64,000 nt of DNA from Candidatus Poribacteria bacterium (GTDB taxonomy: Bacteria > Poribacteria > WGA-4E > WGA-3G): the NCBI GenBank assembly GCA_007571305.1, contig RKRR01000107.1:5638-69637 (forward strand). Reading direction: 5' to 3'. Below are positions 4,955 to 55,424 of the stretch, piece by piece; the first letter of the stretch is position 1; the number at the start of each line of letters is the position of its first letter. A model generated the notes under the pieces. It worked only from the letters and a program-made list of their open reading frames with translations. It was not told the DNA's origin and searched no databases. Position numbers and translations under genes: made by a program.

Positions 4955-5755
4955 TTATTTTTTTAGAGCTGCCCATGTAGCGGTGAGTTTGTCGGTGGGA
5001 GAAACGTCGAAAGCCGCTTCCAATCCATCATCCATAATACTCTGAATCTCATCCTGACTTAGAACCACATTAAAAATAGCCACATCGTCAATGATGCCTC
5101 TGTATTTACCTGCATAACCGGAGCCGATGAGCAAATTAAGTCCGCTGGGGCTGGAATCCCCGCAGGGGTGCGCCCCACACTTTAACCATTTATCCTCAGA
5201 TGCAACCTCACCGTCTTTGTACATCTTATATTCGCGCTTTTTGACATTACGTGTCTCGGCCACGTGAATCCATTCATCATTCACGAAAGTACCAGGTACC
5301 GGTCTCCTGACCTCCACATACGGCTGGCAATTGCCACCACAATCGCCCCAATAAAAACTCAACCGACCGTCCGGTTCCTGTGTCAAGCAACCTTCGCCGC
5401 CATAAGATTTGCAAACGATGTTTTGACGACCCGAAGCTACGCTTTCAGGTCTAACCCAAAAAACAATTGTCACATCTCCGTGGAACTGAAGTGATTCATC
5501 ATTCCCCATATCCACATAAGAGGTGCCATCAAACTCAAGAGCCTTACCAAATTTACCATCCACCCACTTCGGTTTATTCGTGAGTGTCCCATCATTTCCA
5601 TTTCCTGATGAATCTTTTGCGGTATTTCCCTTACCTTCATCAAATTTCCATACGCCTACAATGGTGTCAGGGTCTAACACGGCATAACTTGAAGCGGCTA
5701 ACATCCCAACGATAAGTAGGATGACCCCGCCGATCCACAACAATCTGATCTTCAT
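4955..5755 (-). CDS. Secreted LamG-like jelly-roll protein with conserved C-terminal tail
   Basis: Signal peptide; VWKFDEGKGNTAKDSSGNGNDG, WVDGKFGKALEFDG, GIIDDVAIFN; tail VSPTDKLTATWAALKK. Confidence 0.85.
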   Translation of the reverse strand: MKIRLLWIGGVILLIVGMLAASSYAVLDPDTIVGVWKFDEGKGNTAKDSSGNGNDGTLTNKPKWVDGKFGKALEFDGTSYVDMGNDESLQFHGDVTIVFWVRPESVASGRQNIVCKSYGGEGCLTQEPDGRLSFYWGDCGGNCQPYVEVRRPVPGTFVNDEWIHVAETRNVKKREYKMYKDGEVASEDKWLKCGAHPCGDSSPSGLNLLIGSGYAGKYRGIIDDVAIFNVVLSQDEIQSIMDDGLEAAFDVSPTDKLTATWAALKK

Positions 5756-5985: not shown

Positions 5986-7254
5986 TTAATTCTCGGTCCG
6001 GAGTGCGTCAATAGGTGAAAGACGCGCCGCCCGCATCGCAGGGTAGACACCAAATCCCACACCCATGACAATCGAAAAAATAACAGAAGTCAATATCCAT
6101 GGAAGAGAAAGGACGACGGGCCACGCGTCCACAACAGGCACAATCCGCACCGCAAGCCATGCCATCCCATGTGCTGCGCCCCAACCGCCCGCGATGCCGA
6201 GCACCCCGCCGCATAAGCAGAGGCAGATCGCTTCTGTCAAGAACTGATAGAAGACATCAATCCGTTTCGCACCTACTGATTTCCGTAAGCCTATCTCGCG
6301 TGTTTTCTCACCGACAGAAACGAGACAGATATTCATAATGCCGATGCCGCTGACGAACAGCGAGAAACCCGCAATGCTGCCCAAAGTAATCTTTATCACC
6401 CTTTGGATGTGCTCCAGCCGCCCGAATGTCAGTTTCGGGATATAGTACTCAATAAAGTCGTCCTGCCCGCGGTGTCTTTTACGTAGGATATCCTTAACAG
6501 AAGCGATGATACTGTTAATATTGGCACCCTTTTGGAAAAAGACAATCATGTAATCAACGTAGCGAATGCCTGAAAGTCGTTGTTGATCTGTTGTCAATGG
6601 AACACAGACGGCATCATCCAAGGAATACTCCCAAGTGAGGCTACGACCCTTTGGTTTCATCACACCCACGACACGCATTCGTACTGGCTTTTGTCGCCAA
6701 TAACGATAATATCGGACCTTTATTTCCTCCCCGAGTGGGACTGCCTCTCCAAACAACTCAATGGCAACTTCTGCCCCCAAGACGCAGACCTGTGCTGCGG
6801 TCTCTATATCGTTTTCGGTGAGAAATCTACCGGTTTGTAGTTCCCAATTCATGCCGCGGGCATAGTTCGCAGTAACTGCTTCTATGAGTGCTCTAGCTTG
6901 GGTTCCATGTCGAGTGGTAACAAAGTTTTCAAAAGATTCGTGATTGGGTAAGACATATAAAACCTCGGGGCATTCCGCCTCAATAGCATAAGCGTCTTCA
7001 AGAGTATATCGTTCGGTAGTTCGCCGGAGCCGCCCGCGTTTGAGAATAGATGTGCGAGTGTAGAGTGTAAACTGATTTGCCCCACCAAGTTTTTCGATAT
7101 CTTCAGCGATGATTTTTTTTCCACCGTCGCCAATAGCAATCATGCACAGCACCCCCGCAACCCCGATAAAGATGCCGAGAATGGACAATCCCGCACGGAG
7201 TCTATTTTGCACAAGCGGCTTTACACCTGTCGTGATAGCCTCAAGAATATTCAT
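5986..7254 (-). CDS. MacB/FtsX-family ABC transporter permease
   Basis: NRLRAGLSILGIFIGVAGV, large periplasmic domain, SLFVSGIGIMNICLVSV, REIGLRKSVGA, GVYPAMRAARLSPIDALRTE. Confidence 0.9.
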   Translation of the reverse strand: MNILEAITTGVKPLVQNRLRAGLSILGIFIGVAGVLCMIAIGDGGKKIIAEDIEKLGGANQFTLYTRTSILKRGRLRRTTERYTLEDAYAIEAECPEVLYVLPNHESFENFVTTRHGTQARALIEAVTANYARGMNWELQTGRFLTENDIETAAQVCVLGAEVAIELFGEAVPLGEEIKVRYYRYWRQKPVRMRVVGVMKPKGRSLTWEYSLDDAVCVPLTTDQQRLSGIRYVDYMIVFFQKGANINSIIASVKDILRKRHRGQDDFIEYYIPKLTFGRLEHIQRVIKITLGSIAGFSLFVSGIGIMNICLVSVGEKTREIGLRKSVGAKRIDVFYQFLTEAICLCLCGGVLGIAGGWGAAHGMAWLAVRIVPVVDAWPVVLSLPWILTSVIFSIVMGVGFGVYPAMRAARLSPIDALRTEN

Positions 7255-8960
7255 CAGCTGACTTGTGGTCCTATAACCTTCAGAAACTCTTTATCATCCT
7301 TTACATCCGAAAATTCAGGGGTCTCAAGGAAAGTCGGGTAGTATGTATCCCAATTATCCGGTTGCGCCACATAGTAGTCCCGAGCGACCTTTAAATGATG
7401 TAGAGTCTTTTCTCGATCCTTCTCAGAAGCCCAGATGCTTGCAGCAAGTTGAAGGTGGGCATAATCGTTGTTATTTTCCAAATCAATGGCGACTTTCAGA
7501 AACCTTTTCGCCTCATCATACTTCCTCAACCACACCAGACAACAACCGACATCGTGAGCAAGCCACATAAGATGACCGAGATCTACAGGTTGCCCTGTCT
7601 CCCGTTTTTTTAATTCTCCTTCCATATACGCCCTCACTTCTGTAAAGATTTGATCGAAACGCTCCCAATCCTCCTGTCCACCATAGATGAGAAGTAGATT
7701 TTCTTTCGCAATTAACCAGAATTGAGAATAGTGATCCGAACCGGGTTCATTGTTAGCACGTTCCAACTTTTCTATTTCAAGGAGTGCTTCATCGAATCTG
7801 TCGTTGCATCGTAAGACATCTACTCCTGTTTGCAGGAACTCGCAGCGACTGTAGCAACTCACGTCAGGATTGTCTAAGCGTTCAGAGGCTTCATGATAAA
7901 GTTGAATCCAGTCATCAATACGACCTTCCGCCGCCCAACATCCATGCACATGCAAATTGGAAGCAGCCTCTAACACGTATTTATCTGACAAGTGCTGGCA
8001 CGTCCAACGGTAAAACTGAGAGTGTTCCTCAATCGCTTCTCGATGTCTTCCCAGAAAAGCGAGGCTATAAATCAATCCATCGTGCGCCCAGAAACGCTCG
8101 GTATTATCTGAAGTCTCATCCATATACTTACGGAGTAGAGGGATTCGCTTTTCCATTCCGAATTTGTCCATATACAGGTATATCTCATCCACAGCGAGAT
8201 GCATTAATTCGGGTGTGGTTTTACCCTTAAGTGCATCTTCAATCTCATTGCAGGCTTTTGTAAGAATATCCGATCTTGATGCGGGATCAGATTTCACATC
8301 TTCCATGAATGCATTGAACTTCGTGCGAATTTCTTCTAATTGTGTCATGATGTTCTCCTTCACGTTATCTGGTAATTCTAAGGAACCAAAGAATTCTGGA
8401 TTTAAGAGTTCTTGATCTGCTTGCAGACGCTTTCGAGCTCGCTGAAGTCGACTCGTAATTGTATTCACCGACACTCCCATGACTCTGGCGATCTCTCTCG
8501 TTGACATTTCGTCGAGATAGAAGAGTGTTACAACGGAGCGTTCATTCGCCGGTAGTTTTTCCAAAAGTCTTCTCACAAGTTCATGGTAATGCTCGATTCT
8601 CTCTGTCATCCGCTGTTCCGATATATGGTGGACATAAGAGGATTTCTCAATTTCTTTAGTAGGTGTGTCCTCCAAGGATTGCGTCACAGACCTTTGGCTT
8701 CGCATCCAATCAATACATAGCCGATTTGCGATGACATGGAGCCATCCAGCAAATTGATTGGGATTCTTGAGTGTCGGAAGTTTATTGTATGCCCTCAGGA
8801 AGGTGTCTTGCATGATCTCTTCCGCATGGTGAAAATCTTGGATCTTCCGCCATGCCAGGGCATGAATGCTTTTCTGGTACTTTTCGACTAAGATACCAAA
8901 CGCAGTGTCGTCACCCGATAAAAACTTGCCAATCAATCGAGCATCGTCTTCTCTTTCCAC
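7254..8960 (-). CDS. ECF sigma factor fused to a ~364-aa C-terminal helical-repeat (TPR-like) domain
   Basis: Sigma2 (AEEIMQDTFLRAY...FAGWLHVIANRLCIDW) and sigma4 (EIARVMGVSVNTITSRLQRARKRL) in residues 1-185; C-terminal helical repeats (YDEAKRFLKVAIDLENNNDYAHLQLA); GTG start with AGGAGG RBS; stop overlaps the permease ATG (TGATG). Confidence 0.85.
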   Translation of the reverse strand: MEREDDARLIGKFLSGDDTAFGILVEKYQKSIHALAWRKIQDFHHAEEIMQDTFLRAYNKLPTLKNPNQFAGWLHVIANRLCIDWMRSQRSVTQSLEDTPTKEIEKSSYVHHISEQRMTERIEHYHELVRRLLEKLPANERSVVTLFYLDEMSTREIARVMGVSVNTITSRLQRARKRLQADQELLNPEFFGSLELPDNVKENIMTQLEEIRTKFNAFMEDVKSDPASRSDILTKACNEIEDALKGKTTPELMHLAVDEIYLYMDKFGMEKRIPLLRKYMDETSDNTERFWAHDGLIYSLAFLGRHREAIEEHSQFYRWTCQHLSDKYVLEAASNLHVHGCWAAEGRIDDWIQLYHEASERLDNPDVSCYSRCEFLQTGVDVLRCNDRFDEALLEIEKLERANNEPGSDHYSQFWLIAKENLLLIYGGQEDWERFDQIFTEVRAYMEGELKKRETGQPVDLGHLMWLAHDVGCCLVWLRKYDEAKRFLKVAIDLENNNDYAHLQLAASIWASEKDREKTLHHLKVARDYYVAQPDNWDTYYPTFLETPEFSDVKDDKEFLKVIGPQVS

Positions 8961-9342
8961 GAAACTTCCTCCTAATGAACAGGTTGGATCGTGCTTGTTT
9001 TTGCCAAATGCGAAACTTTGTCAAATGAAGCAGCCCAGGGCGATTCGTACTCTCTGTTATTAAAGACGAAAGTTTAATGAAAAAACGTGCATCGTGATGA
9101 AAAAATGGGAAAACCTGAATTGTTTGGAAATTATTTTGTGGGGACAATTCTGGACGCACGATAAATCACCGATTGCGCAAATCTTGGACTGCTAACAGAT
9201 AGAGTTACCGCTGAAAGGCATTTTCGGGGGAATTGAAGTATGTGTAGGGAAGACTTATCTCTACAAGTCAGAACGCTTGCGCCCCTTACATCAATCAGAA
9301 ACGGTCACAAATGCTTCTTTGGGAACTGAGACAGTAGAAATA

Positions 9343-11316
9343 CTAAAAGGCGCGGATGACCTTAGCAACTAAACGCTGTTTGAATTCCGAGGCATTAGGA
9401 TCTCCCAGGATAATGAAAAAGTCAGTGCCGGCATATCCGGATCGGCGCAATGCGAAGTAGATATTAATGCCCTCTGCTTGCCAGATTAATCGGCTACCGA
9501 GACTTAATGCGGGACTGAAATCGTACGTGAGGGTTAAAATCTGTTGGTACCGCCTCTCAAAGTGCCACTGAATTTGGGAAGTCAATCCGACAGTGAAACC
9601 GTGGGTGCGGAGATTCAGATTCCCGCTGACGCGATGAATCCGCTCCCCTGCTTGCTCGCCACCTGTGTATCCAACATTGACATTATTAAACCGGTCTGAG
9701 GCGCGGAGACCCAAATTAACAGAGAAAAGGCTATCGGTGAATTCCTCAAATCTGCCACCTCTCCAGTCAGCCCCAAGTGCGATGTCACTATGGGTTAAAA
9801 GGTATGTGGCGATTGTAAACGTGCGACGAAAAAGTTCGCCTTCAGCGGTGTTAGAAGCATGCCCATAAAAGAAAATATTGGCACGCCGAAAAATTCCATC
9901 CCGCCATTCGTTATCAATTCGGACACGCATGGAAGCACCATGATATCCGGTGAAGGGGTGGTAGCCGAGTCTGTTCACAAAATCGGGATCGAAGAACAAT
10001 CCCGACACCGCTGCTTGAAGTAGCGAACCTTCGTAAAGGAACGTGGCAGCCCCTGCCCTACCCTCCGATTCACCCTCCCAAGTTTGACCGAAATGTGAGG
10101 ACACCGAAAACTTACCGTGGCGTATATTCCCTGAAAGATAACCGACATTGTTGGCTTTGGTATCACGGTGATGATGAGACAAAAACGCCGCGCTGATATT
10201 GGATGTCGCCGTGAGCGATTGTGAAGCTCGGAAGATAACATTCTGGTTGTTTCCATGATACGTGCTTAAGGTACCGACTGAGGTATTCTTGCCAATTTTT
10301 CCAAAGGCTTTCAATCCTGCATCCATATCCTCTACCCGCCGCGAGTGAAAAAAGTTCCGAAATTGATAGAGATTACCACCTTCTGAAAAGAACGGACGGC
10401 GATCCGGTACGTAGCGTTCACCGTAGGAGAAATCGATGCCTTCCACGGCTTGTTCAACATTATCAAAATCGGGATTCGCTGTTCCAATGAGTCGCAACTG
10501 TGGTGTAACTTCATAGCGGATATCCGCGCCTGCGCGGGCAGTGTATTCTCTCTCGTCGGCCTCCGCTTCCCGAATACCACCAATCAGATAGGGTAAAAAT
10601 TTGAGTTCACGTTTCCGAGGCGGTGGTAGCACATCAATCCAATGTCCATCGTTCTCTCGAAATTCATTCACCCCTAAATTACACCACCACGAACGTTCCC
10701 CAGTGCGCTGCTGTTCTCTGTCAATATTAATCCCCATCCGAACTGGTTTGGTTGTATCAGGATAATCCAACATCTGCCACGGTATCTCCATCTCTACAAT
10801 CCAGCCGTCTTCCACAATCTGTGCTGCAGCCTTCCATAGTCCGATCCACTCACTTTTTTCTGCACGTCCAGTAGCGAGATGTGCGTATTTCGTCCCGATT
10901 GGATTTACGATAAAGAAATTTCTGTCCGAAAACTGGTGTGTATGAAACGGATCAAGACTAAACGAAACCCAGTCCTCTCCGCGAATTCGGGTCTGATCTT
11001 TCGTTTGGCGCGCAACAATTTTATCGGGCATATCATCGTAAAGATGAAGTCCAACGTAAATAGCTTTGTCCGTATAAACAAGGCGGCCCATAGACTGATT
11101 TTTTGCTGGTTTTTCGGTGCGCTGATCAGTGAAACCGCTGGCTTGGGGTGCGTCTTGCCAGCAAACATCGTTGAGGACACCGTCAATGACAGGCGTTTGA
11201 TCTGTTTTGACGGCGCGGAGTTCTTTCTGCACAGTCTGTCCGTTTTCGGCTACCGACATTTGTAAGTCTGTGATTAAGGTGAACAATAGTGTGATAAGCA
11301 ATACTACCCTAGACAT
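9343..11316 (-). CDS. CBM9-like plus DUF5916 outer-membrane/secreted protein
   Basis: Signal peptide; PVIDGVLNDVCWQDAP, YVGLHLYD, GWIVEMEIPW, TANPDFDNVE, DRRPFFSEG motifs; beta-strand-rich C-terminus ending in F. Confidence 0.7.
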   Translation of the reverse strand: MSRVVLLITLLFTLITDLQMSVAENGQTVQKELRAVKTDQTPVIDGVLNDVCWQDAPQASGFTDQRTEKPAKNQSMGRLVYTDKAIYVGLHLYDDMPDKIVARQTKDQTRIRGEDWVSFSLDPFHTHQFSDRNFFIVNPIGTKYAHLATGRAEKSEWIGLWKAAAQIVEDGWIVEMEIPWQMLDYPDTTKPVRMGINIDREQQRTGERSWWCNLGVNEFRENDGHWIDVLPPPRKRELKFLPYLIGGIREAEADEREYTARAGADIRYEVTPQLRLIGTANPDFDNVEQAVEGIDFSYGERYVPDRRPFFSEGGNLYQFRNFFHSRRVEDMDAGLKAFGKIGKNTSVGTLSTYHGNNQNVIFRASQSLTATSNISAAFLSHHHRDTKANNVGYLSGNIRHGKFSVSSHFGQTWEGESEGRAGAATFLYEGSLLQAAVSGLFFDPDFVNRLGYHPFTGYHGASMRVRIDNEWRDGIFRRANIFFYGHASNTAEGELFRRTFTIATYLLTHSDIALGADWRGGRFEEFTDSLFSVNLGLRASDRFNNVNVGYTGGEQAGERIHRVSGNLNLRTHGFTVGLTSQIQWHFERRYQQILTLTYDFSPALSLGSRLIWQAEGINIYFALRRSGYAGTDFFIILGDPNASEFKQRLVAKVIRAF

Positions 11317-11376
11317 GATTCTCCCTCATTGTCCCGCGAGCTTCTACAGGTTCGCTCTTATAGATTCACTTGTATA

Positions 11377-11535
11377 ACCCAAATTGCTATGGACACAATT
11401 TTAGAAATTCATCTGCTCTTTTTTATTGAAAAACGTTCGGGATCCGCAGTATTTCGTAGCGTAGGAAACCTTTGGTCGCCTACGTCCGAAGCTGCACAAC
11501 CGAACAGGTGATGCGACAAAGGCGGCAACTTGGGT
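11377..11535. mobile_element. MITE family C (IS982-like ends), copy 1
   Basis: Ends ACCCAAATTG / CAACTTGGGT, flanked by TTGTATA / TTGTATG; full-length homology with 53926-54082. Confidence 0.75.
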
Positions 11536-11624
11536 TTGTATGGTAGAGTCCCTTAAGACGGAAAAAGGATAGCAAAAAATTCAAGAGAGTTATTGTTTAT
11601 CAGTTAAAGAGGTACTCTGTTTAA

Positions 11625-12845
11625 TCAAGGGATCTTTTGATGGAATTCCGCGATGCTTTTTTCAACACTTCGGAGTAGCATCTCATCGCTGAGGTGGAAC
11701 GCCTCGCGTATTGTGATCGGTAGTTTCTGTTTCGCCTCTATCGAATCGAGCAACTGCTGATTTTGCACGACAACGACAGAGTCAATACTTCCTCGAAGTT
11801 CCTGCAGACCACGTTTTGCTTGCTCCGCGCGACGTTGACCTTCAAAGTTGAATGGACACGTCACAACGCCGACTGCGAAAGCACCCTGTTCTTGAGCGAG
11901 AGATGCAATCAGAGGTGCGGCACCAGTCCCTGTTCCACCACCCATACCAGCGATAACAAAGACAATATCCGCATTCGCAACGATAGTGTAGAGTGTTTCT
12001 CTGTCCTCCTCAGCGGCTTCTCTACCTACCTCTGGATTCGCGCCCGAAAACCCTGGAGTGGTGTTTGAGCCGATCTGTACCCGTGTTGCTTCACGGTGCT
12101 TGTCTAGTGCTTGCATGTTTATATCCACGGCATAAAATTCAACACCTGTCAAACCGGCTGCAATCATGTGATTGACGGCGTTACCGCCCGCTCCACCGAC
12201 ACCAATAACCTTGATTTTGGTTTGGATGTTTTTGGATTCTTCTCGTTTGGATGACATAGGTCTCCCTTTTTTAGGCTCGACACCGAACTTCTTACGCAGG
12301 AGTTCACGTGTCTGTCTTAATTTCGTCTTGATTGTGCCTATCGCCAATCCGAGTTCAGCGTGGATCTCATTGATATTCCACAATTCCAAATAGTATAGGA
12401 CCGCAACGCGGCGCATTTTATCTGGGAGATGATGTATTGCTTCTCTCACCTCTTCGTAGAGTTCTGTTTCACGAAAGCGTGCGACAGCACCTTGATCAAT
12501 ATAATCCGTCAGATCTGCATAACTGGCAGAAATTTCATTCCCCAAACGCCCAACAGAAGCATAGTACCTCTTGCAAGCGTTATAAGCAATGCGATGTAGC
12601 CATCCACCGAAACTCTCAACGCTCTGTAGTCCGCCGATATTTTCCCAGACGGCTCTCCAAACGTCCATAAGGATTTCTTCAGCATCGCGGGGTTGTCTCG
12701 AATTTGCGATAATCACTTTCCAAATACGTGGACTATAACGCGACATCAGTTCCGCAAACGCCAGTTCATCACCGGCTTGTACAAGTTCGATGAGTTCTTC
12801 ATCTGTTAGAATGGTGTCCGTTGATAGATCGTATCGCATAAACAT
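11625..12845 (-). CDS. ECF sigma factor fused to an FtsZ N-terminal GTP-binding domain
   Basis: Residues 1-190: sigma2 (DAEEILMDVWRAVW...FGGWLHRIAYN) and sigma4 (EIHAELGLAIGTIKTKLRQTRELL). Residues 197-406: KIKVIGVGGAGGNAV, GANPEVG, AGMGGGTGTGAAP, PFNFEGQRR. Ends before the T7 loop (NVDFAD). Confidence 0.92.
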   Translation of the reverse strand: MFMRYDLSTDTILTDEELIELVQAGDELAFAELMSRYSPRIWKVIIANSRQPRDAEEILMDVWRAVWENIGGLQSVESFGGWLHRIAYNACKRYYASVGRLGNEISASYADLTDYIDQGAVARFRETELYEEVREAIHHLPDKMRRVAVLYYLELWNINEIHAELGLAIGTIKTKLRQTRELLRKKFGVEPKKGRPMSSKREESKNIQTKIKVIGVGGAGGNAVNHMIAAGLTGVEFYAVDINMQALDKHREATRVQIGSNTTPGFSGANPEVGREAAEEDRETLYTIVANADIVFVIAGMGGGTGTGAAPLIASLAQEQGAFAVGVVTCPFNFEGQRRAEQAKRGLQELRGSIDSVVVVQNQQLLDSIEAKQKLPITIREAFHLSDEMLLRSVEKSIAEFHQKIP

Positions 12846-12928
12846 TTCTCAATTAGATTTTAACCTTAAAGAGTAGACTTTTTCGGAGAGCGGTTTAAAA
12901 AAATCAAATTAACGACTTGTGCTAATTA

Positions 12929-13086
12929 ACCCAAGTTGCCACTTTGTAGCATAGGAAACCGTTGATCTCCTGTGCATCTTCATGCCGAAAATCACACGGA
13001 ATACGTCAAACTTTTGGAAAAAATGGAGGATCCTCACTGAAAACGGGTGTTCGTGTATCTGAAATCCTATAGGTAGCAACTTGGGT
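12929..13086. mobile_element. MITE family C, copy 2
   Basis: Perfect ends ACCCAAGTTG / CAACTTGGGT with 6-bp direct repeat TAATTA on both sides; lies between the two sigma-fusion genes. Confidence 0.8.
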
Positions 13087-13216
13087 TAATTAGTTTTGAG
13101 ACAGGATTTCAACTCGGTCTGAGACGTGTTAACCTCCTCGGAATACTTCCGAAACCCTCCTGGAGATGAATCAAGCGTTTTTGATGTATCAGGGTCAGGA
13201 ACATCGTTTCGCTTTG

Positions 13217-14938
13217 CTAAAGTTTCTTCGGCATGACGAAATAGACCTGCCCTTCTTCACCCATCGGTTTAATAAAAATAGGGTCCAATTCACCCGAGAA
13301 CTCCAGAGACAGAGCCTCCGTTTCAACGCGCTCGATTGCGTCTGTCAGCAACCGTGGATCAAAACCGATACGGATACTTCCAGTGCTGGATTCCACCTCT
13401 AACGTCTCCTGCTTTATATCCGGTTCAGTCGTCTCCGGAGAAATCCGAATTTGTTGCGCATCTATCTCCATACAAATAGTAGGATTTTCCGGATTTGTGA
13501 GCGGCGAGACCCTGCGTATTGCGTCCAAAAAACGCTCTCTCGGCACAACCGTCCGCCCTTTAAAAGATTCTGGAAAGAGTTTCTCATACTTTGGATATTC
13601 ACCGTCTACCAATCGCGTCGTTAATGTAGCGTGATCATCGGCAAAAAGGATTTCATCCTCAACGAGCGAAATCTTTACTTCTGGAGAACTGGCAAAATTT
13701 CGCTCAATTTCTCTGACAGCCTTGAGCGGGATGATGAATCCATTGCTCTCACCAGCTAGCCTGAAGGGTTCGCAATGCGCGATAGCAATTTGTTTGCCGT
13801 CGCATCCAACGACCTCAGTTCTGTCCTCAAAAAGTTTAAAATAAAGCCCGTTTAGAAATCGACGACGATTTTCCTCTCTGGACGCAGCAAATTCAGTCTT
13901 GTAGAGAACAGACCGCAGGGATTCTCCGTTAATAGTGAATGCCTCTTCGCCAACAGAGAGGAGTTCAGGGAACTCTTTATTGGGAAGTCCAATAATTTTG
14001 TAAACGTCTTCCTGACCTGTGATTTCAACCCTATCGCTCGTCGCCGCGAAGTCTATCGCTTTCTCAGCGGGCCACGTTTTAATGATATCCTCCAATTTTT
14101 GGAAAGAAACCACGATGGCTCCTTCCTCTTTGACTGTCCCTTCAACCTTCATTCTGATGCCGATTTCCGTGTCCGTCGCCATACACTCAATTGTGCTCCC
14201 TTCCGCATGGATGAGAACATTTGCGGTAATAGGTGAGGTATCCTGTCCACTTACGATACTCTGTAGCACTTGTAAGGAGTGCCAAAACTCATCTCTCTCT
14301 AAAGTTAATTTCATTCCAAAACCTCCGTTCAAATGATTTTGAGACCGATGTTCCCCTTCAATGGTGAGGTCTAACGCTTCTTGAATCATGAATTCATACT
14401 TCTTTAGTTGTTGCCGCGCACGGCGAAGACGACTTTTAATTGTATTTTCTGATACGCCTAAAAGACGACTTATCTCTGCGTACGTCATGCCTTCAAGGTA
14501 GTGAAACGTGATGACTGTTCGATTGCCTTCCTTCAACTTCGCAAGCAACTTTTCTACCAAGTCGCGTCGCGCGTCAGCAAAAGTTTTCGCGTATTCCTCC
14601 GCGATATATCGGGAATACGCCTCTGTTGCTACTTCGGTGCTGTCAGTGCCTTCCAACGGTTCGATGTGTCGATGGTTCTTTCGGAGCCAAGCGATACAGA
14701 GGCGATCCGTAATGACATAAAGCCATCTTGGAAACCGCGTCGGATCTTCCAAGGTTTCCAATTTCTGATACACCTGTAGGAAGGTTTCCTGCGTAATATC
14801 TTCGGCAATATGAAAATCCCGAATTTTCCGCCACGCGCGTGCGTGAACCTGTTTCTGGTATTTTCTCACCAAGTGCTCAAAGGCAATTGCGTCACCCGCA
14901 AGGATGCGTTGAATCAACACAATATCATCGTTTCTCAC
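13217..14938 (-). CDS. ECF sigma factor fused to a full-length DNA polymerase III beta clamp (DnaN paralog)
   Basis: Residues 1-190: sigma2 (IAEDITQETFLQVYQKL...WLYVITDRLC) and sigma4 (EISRLLGVSENTIKSRLRRARQQL). Residues 209-573 (365 aa): MKLTLER..., MATDTE, EFPEL, FAAS...RRFLNGLYF, DGKQIA, IIPLKAVRE, RLVDGEYPKYEKLFP, IGFDPRLL, FVMPKKL. Confidence 0.92.
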   Translation of the reverse strand: MRNDDIVLIQRILAGDAIAFEHLVRKYQKQVHARAWRKIRDFHIAEDITQETFLQVYQKLETLEDPTRFPRWLYVITDRLCIAWLRKNHRHIEPLEGTDSTEVATEAYSRYIAEEYAKTFADARRDLVEKLLAKLKEGNRTVITFHYLEGMTYAEISRLLGVSENTIKSRLRRARQQLKKYEFMIQEALDLTIEGEHRSQNHLNGGFGMKLTLERDEFWHSLQVLQSIVSGQDTSPITANVLIHAEGSTIECMATDTEIGIRMKVEGTVKEEGAIVVSFQKLEDIIKTWPAEKAIDFAATSDRVEITGQEDVYKIIGLPNKEFPELLSVGEEAFTINGESLRSVLYKTEFAASREENRRRFLNGLYFKLFEDRTEVVGCDGKQIAIAHCEPFRLAGESNGFIIPLKAVREIERNFASSPEVKISLVEDEILFADDHATLTTRLVDGEYPKYEKLFPESFKGRTVVPRERFLDAIRRVSPLTNPENPTICMEIDAQQIRISPETTEPDIKQETLEVESSTGSIRIGFDPRLLTDAIERVETEALSLEFSGELDPIFIKPMGEEGQVYFVMPKKL

Positions 14939-15348: not shown

Positions 15349-16188
15349 TTAATCGGTTTCCTCGGATACAGGTTTGTCAGCCTCGTCTGCATTCAAGTAT
15401 CTGAGTGGACTTTCAATGCTGTATTCCCCTGATTCCTCAAGAAACTGCTGAATCAGATAGACATGCCCAGCACCGATAATTAATAGGATCCGGTCATTCG
15501 GAGATTCGGTGATACGCGTGAGGTTCACAAAAATCTGGAGATTCCAGGTATACCACAAATGCCCAACCCAATTGGCCCCTGGGTACTGATCGCCGAGTCC
15601 AACACGCGCAATTCGCAAGTACTGCTGATGATCAGCGAGTCTACCTTCAGGCTGATTGAGTCGTCTGTACATATCGGTTATCGGTTCGTATTTCTCAGGT
15701 TCAACCCAGATTGTGCCATCTGCATCCTGCGTAATTTTCCCTTCAGCCATAGGGGGTTGCCCCATGAGGTGCTCCTGATTATGTGCCTTTGCGAACTTGT
15801 CAGGGTCTACCAAATCCCAGTCAAAGTTCTCTGGAAAGAAACCATCGGGTTCCTGACGGTAATTTCGGAAATAATCAACACAGTAGAGTTTAGGGAGTCC
15901 CATCTGTTTTGCCAATCGAAATCCGATTTGGTCGCCTTCCCCACGTTTGAGTTGGTATGTGCCTTCCAGATAGCCATGATAGTTTGCGTTAATCTTAGCA
16001 TCAAACCTTTCATCTGCCTCAAGAGCTACCTTAGTGGGACGAAACGCTTTCAGCTGCGTCACCAGTTGTTCAATCTCGCGTTGGCGTTTGGGCGCGAGGA
16101 CATCATCCATTTTTGTATTGAATACATTGATTCCTGGATTTGCCAGATGGTCACTGCCGAGAATCATAAGTATCGGTTTTTGTGGCAT
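15349..16188 (-). CDS. DUF5694-like protein (stand-alone copy, putative TraB/Tiki-type hydrolase)
   Basis: MILGSDHLANPG, FRPTKVALE, QIGFRLAKQMG, WYTWNLQIFVNL, RILLIIGAGHV. ATG at 16188 follows AGGAG; the track start at 16278 overlaps the upstream gene. Confidence 0.7.
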   Translation of the reverse strand: MPQKPILMILGSDHLANPGINVFNTKMDDVLAPKRQREIEQLVTQLKAFRPTKVALEADERFDAKINANYHGYLEGTYQLKRGEGDQIGFRLAKQMGLPKLYCVDYFRNYRQEPDGFFPENFDWDLVDPDKFAKAHNQEHLMGQPPMAEGKITQDADGTIWVEPEKYEPITDMYRRLNQPEGRLADHQQYLRIARVGLGDQYPGANWVGHLWYTWNLQIFVNLTRITESPNDRILLIIGAGHVYLIQQFLEESGEYSIESPLRYLNADEADKPVSEETD

Positions 16189-16222
16189 TTGCGTAGTATC
16201 TCCTGTAGATAGATATGTCTGA

Positions 16223-17647
16223 TCATTGCTTAGGCTGTTCGGTATCCTCGGATGAAAGTGTCTCTGCCTCATCCGCATTCAAGTACTTCAGTGGACTCTC
16301 AACGATGTAGTCTCCCGATTCCTCAAGAAACTGCTGAATCAGATAGACATGCCCAGCGCCAATAATCAGTAGAATGCGATCATCGGTGGACTCAGTGATA
16401 CGCGTGAGGTTCACAAAATTCTTGAGATTATGTGCATACCACCAATGTGAAACCCAATTGGCACCTGGATATTGGTCTTTGAGCCCAATGCGTGCGGTTC
16501 GCAGATACGATTGATGTTGTACCCTACCCCATTCAGGCTGATTGAGCCGGATATACATGTCAATTAGGGGTTCATATTCCTCAGGTTCAACCCAGACTGT
16601 GCCATCTACGTCCGCCCGAACTCTCACTCCGCTTGAGGAGATGCTCCATAAGAGATGCTCCTGATTATGAGTCTCCGCAAACGTGGCGTAGTCCAGTAGA
16701 CTCTGATCAATTTGATCTAAAATCGGTCTCTGTTCCGGCCAATCAGCAACACAGTAAAGTTTCGGATGTCCCAGCTGTTTCGCTAACCGAAAGCCGATTT
16801 GGTTGTGCGAAATCCGTTTGAGTTCGTAATCGCCCTCCAAGTAGTCTTGATAATTGGCGTTAATCTCAGCATCAGATTTTTTGTCTGCATAGACGGCTAT
16901 CTTAGTGGGACGAAACGCTTTCAGCTGCGTCACCAGTTGTTCCATTTCGCGTTGGCGTTTGGGCGCGAGGACATCATCCATTTTTGTATTGAATACATTG
17001 ATTCCTGGATTTGTGAAGAGGTCACCACCCAAAATCATGACTGTCGCTTTTTGTCGTGTGTCATCTCTTTTCCACTGCCCCTTCAGCTTGTCGCCGAAAT
17101 CGATGTCCACCGCACCGAAATTGCTTAGATTTCCGAGCAATTCCTCAATGCGTTCTGGCTCGATCTCTCCGTAGATGTTGGCAAAGGTGGCTTCTCCAGA
17201 TCCTTTAGAGATGATGATAGCGAAAATCCCGTAGACCTTCTTTTCGTCAAACAGTAGATTGATCTCCACCGTTTCACTCTTTTCCTTAATCCTGACGAGG
17301 ACTTCCCACTGATCCTTTTTCAGTTTCTCCTTGAAATAACTAACTAATTTCCTTTCATCAATCCTTGCCTTATCGTAGGTGCGGACATAGATGCCATCTA
17401 ACATTTGGATCAGTTCGGCGACTTCGGGTTGATTGCTCACCGACTTGGTCACCAGATTGATGAGTTTCGCGGTCAGGTTAACTTCGACTTTTGCTTCAAT
17501 GGTCTCCGGAAAATCAAAGAGGATAAGCCCTTTTCTCTCTGTTTTATCCGAACTTTCTTGTTGTGCTGGTACTGTATTAATCAGTATAAACCATACAGGT
17601 AAAACAACTGATATCAATAATAGGATGGACTGTTTTTGCATTTTCAT
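16223..17647 (-). CDS. Secreted DUF4252-DUF5694 fusion protein
   Basis: Signal peptide; DUF4252-like block (KVEVNLTAKLI...LDGIYVRTY...WEVLVRIKE...FANIYGEI); C-terminal half is a near-duplicate of 15349-16188. Confidence 0.7.
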   Translation of the reverse strand: MKMQKQSILLLISVVLPVWFILINTVPAQQESSDKTERKGLILFDFPETIEAKVEVNLTAKLINLVTKSVSNQPEVAELIQMLDGIYVRTYDKARIDERKLVSYFKEKLKKDQWEVLVRIKEKSETVEINLLFDEKKVYGIFAIIISKGSGEATFANIYGEIEPERIEELLGNLSNFGAVDIDFGDKLKGQWKRDDTRQKATVMILGGDLFTNPGINVFNTKMDDVLAPKRQREMEQLVTQLKAFRPTKIAVYADKKSDAEINANYQDYLEGDYELKRISHNQIGFRLAKQLGHPKLYCVADWPEQRPILDQIDQSLLDYATFAETHNQEHLLWSISSSGVRVRADVDGTVWVEPEEYEPLIDMYIRLNQPEWGRVQHQSYLRTARIGLKDQYPGANWVSHWWYAHNLKNFVNLTRITESTDDRILLIIGAGHVYLIQQFLEESGDYIVESPLKYLNADEAETLSSEDTEQPKQ

Positions 17648-17659
17648 GTGTTCTACTCC

Positions 17660-18346
17660 TTAATTTGAATTGTCGTTTGTTTCTGTTTCTGACTTTGGGT
17701 CGTCCTCCAGTTCTCCCGAACTCACCGCTACTTTCAACCACTGGGGTGCATGCCCCTTTACCCAACCGCGAACATTTTCAAGAATCTCCACCTCAGAATT
17801 AGATTCCAGAAACTGTCCAAATAGAACACCGAGTTTCTGAAAGTCCATCTCTCCATAGATGTTCACGAAACTCGTTTCTTTGTCATTAGTGAACATGAGG
17901 AAAATGCCATGCACTATGCCCTGTTCCTCGGCATATAGCAGACTGAGGTCGAATTTGTCCTCGATTTTGACGAGACGTTCCCACTTTTTCGCTTCAAAGA
18001 TCTCTTGATAGTGGTCAATTACGTTCTTGAGATCTTCTGTTTCTTTATTATATGTGCGGATGGCAGCACCGTTCAGCATTTCGATATGCTCTGTCAAAAC
18101 GACCGACTTGTCTCCAGCAAGTTTCAGATGACTACCAGAAGTCATAAAGAGTTTGAAGAAGTCCCTATCCAAGTTAAATGCCATTTTAGGAAGCGGGGCA
18201 TCCGGCACATCCATCTCTATTTTGCCAAACATTACCTCTACTTCTGCTACGTTGTTCGTCTGGGCGAACCCATTACTGAAGGCGCAGCAGGCTGCGAAAA
18301 AAACGACACCCAGTAAAAGAAAAGTGAGGGGGAATCTTTCCATCAA
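17660..18346 (-). CDS. Secreted DUF4252-family protein
   Basis: Signal peptide; MAFNLDRDFFKL, LNGAAIRTY, WERLVKIE, FVNIYGEMD. Confidence 0.65.
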   Translation of the reverse strand: MMERFPLTFLLLGVVFFAACCAFSNGFAQTNNVAEVEVMFGKIEMDVPDAPLPKMAFNLDRDFFKLFMTSGSHLKLAGDKSVVLTEHIEMLNGAAIRTYNKETEDLKNVIDHYQEIFEAKKWERLVKIEDKFDLSLLYAEEQGIVHGIFLMFTNDKETSFVNIYGEMDFQKLGVLFGQFLESNSEVEILENVRGWVKGHAPQWLKVAVSSGELEDDPKSETETNDNSN

Positions 18347-19020
18347 TTTTCTCCTTTTTGGTGGGAGTGTTGACTCTTTTCAGTGTCAGGAACATTTTCG
18401 GGTAACCGGCTAAGGCTCTCCAAACTTCGCCGAATTGCTAATGAAATATTTTCTTTTTGTTTCAACACGCTGCGGGACGCGTTTTCAATCTGAACAAAGG
18501 GACGACCTGAAACTTCATCAATTCGTACATCAGGAAGCTTTTCATTGACAACGGCACCTGTTCTCTCTACCGCGTAGTTTAACTGACTGAGCGCATAGTT
18601 GAGGTCACGGGAGGCTTGCGTTATCCTCACATACTGCTGATACTGGTAGGTACCAAACAAAGCAACACCAATGAGAACTACCAAGGCACCTGCGCGAGTA
18701 AGTCGTGAAGTGATGTAATCCGAGAATGTGAACAACTGGAATATCCGTTGCAGCCATCTCGGTCCCCTGTTGGGATGCGTGCGAACATAAGCCGAAACAG
18801 CGTTGAAAATTTCTGGTGGTGGTTCCGGCATCGGAAGATCGTGTAATGCTTCATCTATTGCTTGTGCGAAGCGAACTTCATTTTGACAAGCCGAACAGAA
18901 CGCAATATGTGCCTTTACTGTCGCATGAATATCTGCATCCAATTCATCGGCGAGATACGCCTCTAAATTGTCCTGAATCTCCATACAAGATGAATCTCGG
19001 TGAAGCGGAAGATCCTTCAT
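18343..19020 (-). CDS. Zinc-binding (ZAS, zf-HC2) transmembrane anti-sigma factor
   Basis: C-x...LEAYLADEL...HIAFCSAC (HxxxCxxC), one TM helix (GALVVLIGVALFGTY); overlaps the sigma stop (ATGA). Confidence 0.85.
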   Translation of the reverse strand: MKDLPLHRDSSCMEIQDNLEAYLADELDADIHATVKAHIAFCSACQNEVRFAQAIDEALHDLPMPEPPPEIFNAVSAYVRTHPNRGPRWLQRIFQLFTFSDYITSRLTRAGALVVLIGVALFGTYQYQQYVRITQASRDLNYALSQLNYAVERTGAVVNEKLPDVRIDEVSGRPFVQIENASRSVLKQKENISLAIRRSLESLSRLPENVPDTEKSQHSHQKGEN

Positions 19021-19550
19021 CTGTTATTCCTCCAATAGGGACGTAGTAACTCCCGCAACCTTTTACGGGCACGGAATACAGTAGATTTTACGGTGCCTTC
19101 GGGTTGCTCTAAAACCTCAGCAATCTCCTTGAAACTCATGCTATTCATCTCCCGCATAACTATCACCGCTCGCATGTCCGGCGGCAATTTACGAATGGCA
19201 CACTGCACTGACTCCTTGAGTTCTTGCTGAAGTACAATCTCCTCTGGCGATGGCTGTGATTGATTGGAGTGTGTGTGCATTAAGGTTTCAAGCTCCGCAT
19301 CATCTCCTTCTGCCAAAGGCACCTGAAATTTGTTCCGCTTTAGCAGATTGAAACAGAGATTCTGCACACATTTTAGCAACCATGAACGGGCTGTCTTCGG
19401 ACGCAATTTGGTGCGGTGTTCCCATCCCTTAATAAATGTCTCCTGCGTTATATCCTCTGCATCTTCTCGATTTCCGAGTAGATAAAGAGCATGTTGGTAG
19501 ACTCGAGCCTTGTGTTCATGAACAAGCTCAAGAAATTCATCTTCAGTCAT
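19017..19550 (-). CDS. ECF RNA polymerase sigma factor (stand-alone)
   Basis: DAEDITQETFIKGW...WLLKCVQNLCFN and SFKEIAEVLEQPEGTVKSTVFRARKRL. Confidence 0.92.
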   Translation of the reverse strand: MTEDEFLELVHEHKARVYQHALYLLGNREDAEDITQETFIKGWEHRTKLRPKTARSWLLKCVQNLCFNLLKRNKFQVPLAEGDDAELETLMHTHSNQSQPSPEEIVLQQELKESVQCAIRKLPPDMRAVIVMREMNSMSFKEIAEVLEQPEGTVKSTVFRARKRLRELLRPYWRNNR

Positions 19551-54137: not shown

Positions 54138-55424
54138 ATGATAGAATTCGAACAGGAAGAATTTGAAAGTCTACGCGCAAGAATTAAAGTTATTGGGGTC
54201 GGTGGAGCAGGTGGAAACGCCGTGAAACGTATGATTGAGGCAGGACTTACCGGCATAGAATTTTATGCTGTCAATACTGACCAACAAGCACTCTTGACCT
54301 GCCTTGGTGCCACCCAAATCCAGATTGGTGTTAACACCACCGAAGGCTTAGGTTCCGGTGCAGATCCCGAGATTGGCAAAAAAGCCGCCGAAGAAAACAA
54401 AGAGGATCTTCAAATTATCGTAGAGAATGCAAATATGGTATTCATCACCGCTGGTATGGGAGGCGGTACTGGGACCGGTGCTGCACCGCTGATTGCTACA
54501 CAAGCAAAAGAACGTGGAGCACTTACTATCGGTGTCGTGACCCGTCCTTTCAACTTTGAGGGACAACGCCGTTCTAACACCGCCGAAGAAGGACTTGAGA
54601 AACTCCGGGCAGCCGCTGATTCCGTAATTGTTGTACCAAACCAACGTCTCATCGACACGATGGACAGAAAACTTCCTATCCGAGAAGCATTTCGTCTGGG
54701 AGACCAGATTCTCTTACATGGTGTTAAAAGCATATCCGACATCGTCACTGAATCAGGTGAAATTAACGTTGACTTTGCCGATGTTGAATCTATTATGCGC
54801 AACGCAGGAAGCGCATTGATGGGCATGGGGCACGCGACGGGGGACAACCGCGCTGAAATCGCCGCACAGCAGGCGACCAATTCACCCCTACTTGAACAAA
54901 CTAGTATTGCCGGTGCCGTCGGTATGATCGTGAACATTACCGCCCCTCCCGATTTCATGATGCACGAACTCGATGATGCTATGGGTGTCATTCAGGATAC
55001 CGCCCCTGATGCCCAAATTATTTTCGGGCTTGTCTACAAAGATGAATTGGAAGTTGAAGATGAAGTGCTTGTAACTGTCATTGCAACAGGGTTCGATGGT
55101 GGTGGAGGGAATGCCTACATAGATGACAGAAACACCTCGGCACGACAGAATGACACAGCTCCCTATCAAAGGCAACCACAAGGTTTGCCACCAAGTTCCA
55201 GCAGGGCGCGGCGGAGTATAGGCAGAACGCGATCCGATAGAGCGAGGGTTCCTGGTCAGGGACGAAGGGCAAATGCCGAACCCTCCGTAGAAGAGGATAA
55301 GGCACCCCAAAACAATCAGCAGAAACCTGTCCGAGGAAGAGATCAAGACTCAGGGCAACGTCAAACAGATTGGGAAATTCCCGCTTTTCTGCGCGTTCAA
55401 AAAAGACCAAGAAACGATAAATAG
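54138..55424 (+). CDS. ftsZ: Cell division protein FtsZ (canonical)
   Basis: GVGGAGGNAV, NTD, GLGSGADP, GGGTGTG, NVDFADV (T7 loop), VTVIATG, C-terminal core WEIPAFLR. Confidence 0.98.
   Translation: MIEFEQEEFESLRARIKVIGVGGAGGNAVKRMIEAGLTGIEFYAVNTDQQALLTCLGATQIQIGVNTTEGLGSGADPEIGKKAAEENKEDLQIIVENANMVFITAGMGGGTGTGAAPLIATQAKERGALTIGVVTRPFNFEGQRRSNTAEEGLEKLRAAADSVIVVPNQRLIDTMDRKLPIREAFRLGDQILLHGVKSISDIVTESGEINVDFADVESIMRNAGSALMGMGHATGDNRAEIAAQQATNSPLLEQTSIAGAVGMIVNITAPPDFMMHELDDAMGVIQDTAPDAQIIFGLVYKDELEVEDEVLVTVIATGFDGGGGNAYIDDRNTSARQNDTAPYQRQPQGLPPSSSRARRSIGRTRSDRARVPGQGRRANAEPSVEEDKAPQNNQQKPVRGRDQDSGQRQTDWEIPAFLRVQKRPRNDK

Follow-up and report, generated by a model that had tools for sequence, protein, structure and literature searches.

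A window of 64,000 nucleotides from contig RKRR01000107.1 of a Candidatus Poribacteria bacterium, a member of the sponge-associated bacterial phylum Poribacteria, carries on its minus strand a gene that fuses an extracytoplasmic function (ECF) sigma factor in frame to the N-terminal GTPase half of the division protein FtsZ. We refer to the gene and its product as sigma::FtsZ-N, and to the FtsZ-derived half as FtsZ-N. A full-length ftsZ is present in the same window. The features at the locus, with that gene for comparison, are:

11625..12845, minus strand: coding sequence of sigma::FtsZ-N, 406 amino acids (aa) from the first ATG, stop codon at 11627-11625
12552..12749, minus strand: sigma-70 region 2, aa 33-98, Pfam PF04542 (Sigma70_r2), ratio of nonsynonymous to synonymous substitution rates (dN/dS) 0.15
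12291..12455, minus strand: sigma-70 region 4 helix-turn-helix, aa 131-185, Pfam PF08281 and PF04545
12219..12290, minus strand: flexible linker, aa 186-209, AlphaFold2 predicted local distance difference test (pLDDT) below 50
11628..12218, minus strand: FtsZ N-terminal GTPase domain through helix H7, aa 210-406
12268-12261, minus strand: Shine-Dalgarno (SD)-like sequence AAGGGAGA in the linker
12257-12255, minus strand: in-frame ATG, M197, putative internal start for a free FtsZ-N of 210 aa
12867..12902, minus strand: ECF-type promoter, with a T-tract and AAACC as -35 element (12902-12892), an 18-nt spacer and CTCTTTA as -10 element (12873-12867)
54138..55424, plus strand: resident full-length ftsZ, located behind ftsA where a complete dcw cluster ends; parent-like paralogue

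The first 190 amino acids have regions 2 and 4 as their sole Pfam matches, with region 1.1 and sigma-3 absent, and sigma-4 is followed by a C-terminal extension of 220 amino acids. The likely start is M3 (ATG at 12839-12837), which gives a protein of 404 amino acids and is used by most orthologues and by the database copy P0001. Sigma::FtsZ-N belongs to the ECF (group 4) sigma superfamily, scoring 66.4 bits against the NCBIfam sigma70-ECF model TIGR02937 (cut-off 42.9). It is not an FtsZ: the T7 loop and the C-terminal subdomain are missing, and at 223.6 bits it falls below the cut-off of 295.2 for the FtsZ equivalog model TIGR00065. The origin of its second half is nevertheless clear. Pfam places a Tubulin/FtsZ GTPase domain (PF00091) at aa 210-369 (E 6e-42), FtsZ chains in the PDB are matched at E 2e-50, and BLASTP aligns aa 200-401 with aa 5-202 of the resident FtsZ at 60% identity over 203 residues (E 2e-55). 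The FtsZ fold was also predicted with confidence when AlphaFold2 was run on the family alignment (pLDDT 84-94 in this half). The initial annotation, made from the letters of the window, had described an ECF sigma factor fused to the GTP-binding half of a diverged FtsZ paralogue that was 60-65% identical by hand count, and both the architecture and the estimate hold.

To see what has been kept and lost in the FtsZ half, 49 fusions were aligned and compared with 94 native FtsZ representatives; residue numbers follow E. coli FtsZ and are approximate. The signatures GVGGAGGNA, GMGGGTGTG and PFNFEGQRR are intact in the window copy. Across the family the T1 residues G17, G19, G22 and N24 are conserved, as is most of the T3 loop; P134, F135, F137, E138, G139 and F182 are kept, and N165 and D186 are each present in 100% of members. 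Residues of the top polymerisation face are conserved as well (F137 in 100%, I178 in 96%, with I or L at position 178). This conserved nucleotide pocket (T1, G-box, T5, N165 and D186) suggests a GTP-binding role for FtsZ-N. The protein stops at about position 203, short of the T7 synergy loop (NxDxxD) and close to the end of H7, as the initial annotation had it; the T7 loop, the C-terminal subdomain (PF12327), the bottom face, the linker and the FtsA-binding tail are all absent. Sigma::FtsZ-N gives no FtsZ_C Pfam match, and no remnant of an FtsZ C-domain lies downstream, a tblastn search of 9000-13300 returning one chance match of 11 amino acids (E=2), again in line with the earlier description. 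By its sequence, FtsZ-N should be able neither to trigger GTP hydrolysis in a neighbouring subunit nor to homopolymerise. At the exposed end of H7, position I200 is isoleucine in 91% of native FtsZ and histidine in 73% of the truncated fusions, with L, L and I in the full-length fusions described below; these polar replacements look like re-surfacing after loss of the C-domain.

The initial annotation had also drawn attention to a T2 loop that reads DIN for NTD and a T3 loop one residue short. Both changes are real in the window copy, as is the integrity of the other motifs, but they had been given too much weight: in the family consensus NTD is retained (N 90%, T 76%, D 86%) and the T3 loop has its full length. 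The changes are private to the window genome and are ruled out as a family-defining adaptation.

The architecture is not confined to this genome, and a search for it elsewhere, which had been suggested with the first description, revealed a phylum-wide family. Among 5.8 billion proteins at least 120 clusters have the full architecture, at 73-86% identity and 88-100% coverage, nearly all with coverage of at least 97%; the few that are named read 'sigma-70 family RNA polymerase sigma factor [Candidatus Poribacteria bacterium]'. The GTDB species genomes contain 79 related loci, every one from Poribacteria or from an unnamed metagenome-assembled genome. The truncated fusion of about 400 amino acids accounts for 49 of them (56-83% identity), including loci on closed long-read chromosomes and in the single-cell genome WGA-3G; three are triple fusions of sigma, FtsZ and DnaE; and the remaining 27 align in the sigma part only, up to the linker, at 54-65% identity. 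The junction is intact, with no stop codon or frameshift, in about 50 independent genomes, which agrees with the initial view that the gene is no mis-assembly. Selection was estimated over 699 orthologue pairs (Nei-Gojobori): the sigma half has a dN/dS of 0.15 and the FtsZ half one of 0.17, far from the value near 1 that would have spoken for decay. Both the sigma-2/sigma-4 part and the FtsZ half are under purifying selection.

In a HMMER search of 1.84 billion representatives only a handful of distinct 50%-identity clusters combined sigma and FtsZ, namely the main family, a 1425-aa form, a 595-aa form and one distant 456-aa protein on a 2-kb contig. The distant sigma::FtsZ (P0143; L080, 660-2030, contig SDBU01138900.1) is 35% identical overall, has a different sigma and turns into unrelated sequence right at the T7 position. 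It could have arisen by a separate fusion or be a deep relative.

Upstream of the gene, the motif TTTTTTAAACC-N18-CTC(T/A)T(T/A)A was found in 51 of 51 orthologues examined, triple fusions included, the form in the window being TTTTTTAAACC-N18-CTCTTTA about 56 nt upstream of the M3 start codon. The spacing to the start codon is 56-58 nt in 50 of the 51, and 172 nt in the other (L006) after an insertion. The motif is kept even where the DNA further upstream is unrelated, and paralogues fused to WD40 domains are preceded by the same motif. In the 64-kb window it has a single match, at its own gene; an exact-pattern scan of metagenome contigs gave 120 matches, 119 of them chance occurrences in AT-rich DNA. 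No sigma-70-type promoter was predicted in 11300-13300. The window, the related loci and the metagenome contigs yielded no further target gene. Because an ECF-type promoter, with an AAC-type -35 and a short -10, is conserved upstream of every orthologue, as is usual for an autoregulated ECF group, the gene appears to be autoregulated, with the motif presumably recognized by the sigma factor that it precedes. At one locus (L012, 9421-9990) a second promoter copy lies about 530 bp upstream, and between the two copies is an inserted segment with what may be a small ORF (open reading frame) on the opposite strand; the insertion has apparently duplicated the promoter. L011 (8930) has a similar extra copy.

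The second conserved signal lies inside the gene. A linker ATG preceded by an SD-like stretch is present in every family member that can be aligned at the junction, FtsZ- and WD40-fused alike, the stretch being purine-rich (AGAGGGAGA, AGAGGAGGAG or GAAGGAG) and standing 6-9 nt before the ATG. Both elements are held despite differences in the encoded residues (RGRT, RGGT, GVRI, RGKT, GGGI, QGDI, RGGV). The synonymous substitution rate dS is 0.35 in the linker against 0.81-0.85 in the sigma and FtsZ domains, and a sliding count of synonymous differences shows two equal troughs more than 2 standard deviations below the mean, one at codons 1-12, the true start, and one at codons 185-200. No other in-frame ATG inside the ORF has an SD core; SD sequences are found at 16 of 28 crude gene starts of the genome.

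One Poribacteria lineage, represented on 17 contigs (JGI, ENA, NCBI and Logan), has deleted the sigma part save its last codons, and the internal SD and ATG are now the start of the gene, which begins behind the remnant '...GAA CCA TAA AGG GTA ATT ATG'. Its product (P0141; L083-L086, in L083 at 5001-5639; MCY4403903.1, labelled 'hypothetical protein') is a stand-alone FtsZ-N of 212 amino acids, encoded at the syntenic site and with its GTP motifs intact. Given that the SD and ATG are under synonymous constraint and that the stand-alone lineage uses this very ATG, the cell probably makes FtsZ-N in a fused and a free form; and since the stand-alone lineage has no sigma, FtsZ-N would seem to have a sigma-independent role.

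FtsZ is one of several modules joined to this sigma clade, and the commonest is a WD40 propeller. The sigma paralogues at L053-L079 (54-65% identical in the sigma part) mostly run into WD40 beta-propellers of 830-900 amino acids; there are often several per genome, each behind TTTAAACC-N18-CTCT(A/T)TA and with the linker SD and ATG. A fusion to full-length FtsZ (595 amino acids, with FtsZ_C) lies on an 814-kb contig. In three Poribacteria genomes a single ORF of 1425-1442 amino acids joins sigma, FtsZ and DnaE (L049, 10007-14290, OZ244889.1; L050, RHO1_bin_11; L051, PCPOR2a) and has the promoter of the window gene. Its FtsZ is full-length, with FtsZ_C and an intact T7-like motif, while the T3 loop and the F137 equivalent are degenerate; its DnaE (DNA polymerase III alpha) has the PHP domain, palm, fingers and helix-hairpin-helix, without the OB fold or C-terminal part. 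There is also a sigma::DnaE without FtsZ, on a frameshifted long-read contig (P0129/L082, 1130-4388), and a sigma::DnaN that keeps clamp domains 2-3 with domain 1 deleted (P0128; L081, 8001-9410; five members, independently sourced), whose locus is in synteny with that of the triple fusion (TatD, BPD_transp_2, then sigma). Since the linker and first FtsZ residues are alike in truncated and full-length forms, the FtsZ-containing genes suggest one fusion event followed by C-terminal losses. Public databases label the fusions 'sigma-70 family RNA polymerase sigma factor', 'DNA polymerase III subunit beta' or 'hypothetical protein'.

A further fusion, on another sigma clade, is the next gene in the window:

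13217..14938, minus strand: ECF sigma::DnaN with a full beta-clamp, 573 aa

Region 2 lies at aa 23-90, region 4 at aa 126-180 and a three-domain clamp, passing the DnaN equivalog cut-off, at aa 209-571; the sigma is about 27% identical to the sigma part of sigma::FtsZ-N. Here too an SD is found at the junction, as GGAGG-N8-ATG at the first codon of the DnaN module. The family comprises at least 120 protein clusters (67-86% identity), labelled at most 'DNA polymerase III beta subunit'. In closer relatives sigma::DnaN is located 3-5 kb upstream of sigma::FtsZ-N, and in more distant genomes a sigma gene, a zf-HC2 anti-sigma gene and a DnaN-like gene stand next to one another as separate genes (L045).

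Our leading proposal, which is a tentative one and could well be wrong, is that sigma::FtsZ-N is a one-component ECF sigma factor, regulated through a C-terminal extension that binds GTP and either caps or binds the resident FtsZ. The roles suggested in the initial annotation, a guanine-nucleotide sensor, a tether to FtsZ, and a filament cap or inhibitor of division, are still plausible; the spread of the family through the phylum, its promoter, the internal start, the exchange of modules and the sigma::DnaN neighbour go beyond that annotation. The sigma would drive its own promoter, and translation would yield sigma::FtsZ-N together with free FtsZ-N. The FtsZ-N module would bind GTP or GDP and dock by its nucleotide (top) face on the T7 (bottom, plus-end) face of resident FtsZ, either on subunits or at filament ends; because it has no bottom face of its own for extension, the docked module could not be extended and would act as a cap. 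FtsZ would then be the sequestering partner of the sigma, in the position usually taken by an anti-sigma, and sigma availability would therefore follow the FtsZ pool or the state of the Z ring. In the reverse direction, auto-induction would flood the cell with fused and free plus-end cappers and slow division. A translationally coupled gene downstream of an ECF sigma gene normally encodes its anti-sigma, and it is this position that the in-frame half FtsZ occupies; no anti-sigma homologue adjoining sigma::FtsZ-N was seen among the orthologue neighbours examined. SulA, MciZ and MinC all act on the bottom (plus-end) face of FtsZ, and capping there is an effective means of disassembling treadmilling filaments (PMC11938149, where the engineered bottom-face capping mutants of Du et al. 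2018 are cited). Regulation of ECF sigmas by C-terminal extensions has been reviewed, with ECF41, ECF42, ECF56 and ECF57 (PMC8999054).

Several points weigh against this proposal. GTP binding, FtsZ binding and sigma activity are all predictions from sequence. AlphaFold2 gave no confident packing between the domains (predicted template modelling score 0.49, sigma-4 pLDDT below 45). The altered T2 and T3 loops of the window copy mean that its nucleotide handling may differ, and in the family as a whole, where the G-box is kept, T110 is alanine in 67% of members and the truncated forms carry two extra amino acids in the top-face loop between H6 and H7. The dcw/ftsZ cluster (36.9-55.4 kb) has no copy of the promoter motif, and in 1.45 Mb of Poribacteria loci the motif stands almost solely upstream of family members, the exceptions being duplicated promoter copies and a few chance-like matches; no division-related regulon is visible as a result. 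Direct control of ftsZ or dcw by this sigma was considered and rejected, as the only motif in the window is that of the gene itself. Finally, the WD40, DnaE and DnaN fragments of the sister fusions call for a more general logic than FtsZ capping.

Comparison with known systems places the protein by architecture among the ECFs with C-terminal extensions, with which it shares a sigma-2/sigma-4 core followed by a large C-terminal domain, the lack of a separate anti-sigma gene and a conserved group-specific promoter upstream of its own gene. It differs in that a copied half of the cell's own FtsZ, a cytoskeletal GTPase, makes up the extension, and in that the junction keeps an internal ribosome-binding site and start codon. 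ECF57 of Planctomycetes carries WD40-like extensions, and its sigma-2 and sigma-4 are linked by two conserved cysteines (PMC8999054); sigma::FtsZ-N has FtsZ-N in place of WD40, while its 54-65% identical paralogues do carry WD40, and the sigma part of the family alignment has one invariant cysteine (C91). As with MciZ, SulA, the N-terminal part of MinC and the bottom-face capping mutants, FtsZ-N is predicted by homology to occupy the bottom (plus-end) surface and block growth; unlike MciZ, SulA and MinC it derives from FtsZ itself and is covalently joined to a sigma. It shares with canonical FtsZ (TIGR00065) the N-terminal GTPase domain, loops T1-T6, H7 and the GGGTG(T/S)G signature, and lacks T7, the C-terminal subdomain, the linker and the FtsA-binding tail. 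The magnetosome protein FtsZm is an FtsZ paralogue that lacks only the C-terminal tail.

Promoter recognition is physically tied to a component of the replication machine in phage T4 late transcription, through the sigma gp55, gp33 and the sliding clamp gp45 (PMC2988020, PMC7892883), and Mu late transcription works through the beta clamp (PMC12867686). By analogy these resemble sigma::DnaN and sigma::FtsZ::DnaE most closely. The phage link is non-covalent, via clamp-binding motifs, whereas here it is covalent and in a cellular genome, and the partner of sigma::FtsZ-N is a division and not a replication protein. With coupled sigma/anti-sigma operons, finally, the fusion shares a module in the anti-sigma gene position with its own SD and ATG, and the related L045 locus has separate sigma, zf-HC2 anti-sigma and DnaN-like genes; it differs in that no stop codon separates the parts and that the module has no similarity to anti-sigma domains.

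The range of sister fusions allows a broader version, which we consider rather doubtful, in which Poribacteria have a sigma system that reads the cell cycle directly through captured divisome and replisome modules. One ECF clade with one promoter type would have repeatedly captured fragments of FtsZ, FtsZ plus DnaE, DnaE and DnaN, and a second ECF clade a whole DnaN; among the fusions examined, those to FtsZ, WD40 and whole DnaN retain an internal translation start for the module. Each module would engage its native machine (Z-ring ends, clamps or polymerase), and sigma availability would report how far these machines are occupied. Expression would thereby be coupled to replication and division with no classical anti-sigma, in a covalent and cellular parallel to T4 gp55-gp45.

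An FtsZ-N that never touches FtsZ is also conceivable, as a guanine-nucleotide sensor acting in cis: the exapted domain would be a GTP/GDP or (p)ppGpp switch that gates sigma-2 and sigma-4. The conserved nucleotide pocket fits such a role, as do the precedent of ECF activity modulated in cis by C-terminal extensions (PMC8999054) and the finding of the promoter motif on no division gene. We nevertheless think it unlikely, as top-face residues that are dispensable for nucleotide binding are kept too (F137, I178), the window copy tolerates changes in T2 and T3 that touch the gamma-phosphate site, and the sister modules WD40, DnaN and DnaE are not nucleotide sensors. The survival of free FtsZ-N without a sigma in one lineage also counts against it, as this implies a sigma-independent role.

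If FtsZ-N were instead the effector, and the sigma served mainly for positive autoregulation, the system would be a growth-arrest switch, in which a triggered cell piles up dominant-negative FtsZ-N, DnaN domains 2-3 and truncated DnaE until division stops, with dormancy or an abortive-infection-like arrest as the outcome. This would account for the near confinement of the motif to family genes, for the incomplete modules (FtsZ truncated before T7, DnaN lacking domain 1, DnaE missing its C-terminal part), for the internal start that would release a free module and for the stand-alone FtsZ-N lineage; plus-end cappers, moreover, are potent inhibitors (PMC11938149). It sits poorly with WD40, no obvious poison, being the commonest module and with the window sigma::DnaN holding a complete clamp that passes the equivalog cut-off. 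A comparison with known defence-system proteins (PADLOC) gave no meaningful match. Retention across the phylum, with a sigma dN/dS of 0.15, further indicates that the sigma does more than drive itself, and we judge the switch to be distinctly improbable.

A further reading is an integrated decoy or guard, in which fused copies of FtsZ, clamp or DnaE, all common targets of phages, or generic WD40 sensors, would free or activate the sigma when a phage inhibitor binds, and the sigma would switch on a response. The swapping of FtsZ, DnaN, DnaE and WD40 on one sigma scaffold with one promoter type would suit it, as would the several paralogues per genome. Against it, no known defence family is matched, and the neighbours examined include no identified defence gene; selection is purifying and not diversifying; the known inhibitors SulA, MciZ and MinC use the bottom face (PMC11938149), which the fragment lacks; and identity to the resident FtsZ is only 60%. 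We regard a decoy as highly implausible. An artefact, whether a mis-assembly, a decaying chimera or the pseudogene remnant of an ftsZ duplication read through from the sigma gene, is ruled out by the identical junction in about 50 species genomes from independent assemblies (closed chromosomes and a single-cell genome among them), by the dN/dS of 0.17 for the FtsZ half and by the confidently predicted FtsZ-N fold, with only the odd architecture and the private T2/T3 changes speaking for it.

The genes flanking sigma::FtsZ-N vary among orthologues (DUF5916, FtsX-like, sig568, orf484 and LamG). In the window, ECF systems cluster in an island at 3-20 kb, together with DUF5916/CBM9 and LamG proteins. 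Within it, 7254-8960 (minus strand) encodes an ECF sigma of 568 amino acids that abuts, with one shared base, a MacB/FtsX-type permease gene (5986-7254, minus strand) and has several paralogues near sigma::FtsZ-N in other genomes. It was considered as another fusion to a housekeeping protein and rejected, its C-terminal extension of about 380 amino acids resembling tetratricopeptide repeats or an alpha-solenoid. A conventional ECF module at 15349-19550 (minus strand) comprises a sigma of 177 amino acids and a zf-HC2 anti-sigma of 225 amino acids, together with two DUF4252 proteins and two DUF5694 domains. Just upstream of the sigma::FtsZ-N promoter lies an element of about 170 nt (12922-13093) bounded by 21-nt inverted repeats (CTAATTAACCCAAGTTGCCAC), and related ACCCAAGTTGC and GGTTTCCTAYGCTAC pieces flank sigma::FtsZ-N and recur near ftsZ (sites 11453-11536, 41043 and 54082). 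The element looks like a member of a miniature inverted-repeat transposable element or repetitive extragenic palindrome-like repeat family.

FtsZ, tubulin and polymerase III modules receive no mention in the 2021 re-classification of ECFs (PMC7826278) or in the review of non-canonical ECFs (PMC8999054), and in open-access full text, where absence is no proof, we found neither FtsZ-, DnaN- or DnaE-fused sigmas nor a Poribacteria paper on these sigmas. The family provides a defined promoter/sigma pair, a predicted capping fragment of 210 amino acids and a conserved internal start for two products. Provided that the FtsZ half can still bind FtsZ, sigma::FtsZ-N would be the first known natural transcription initiation factor built from a piece of the division machinery, and also a natural plus-end capper of FtsZ origin; promoter choice could then be set directly by how far the Z ring has assembled, or by the level of GTP. 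Together with sigma::DnaN, sigma::DnaE and sigma::FtsZ::DnaE, sigma::FtsZ-N points to a general and undescribed coupling of transcription to replication and division in an uncultured phylum.

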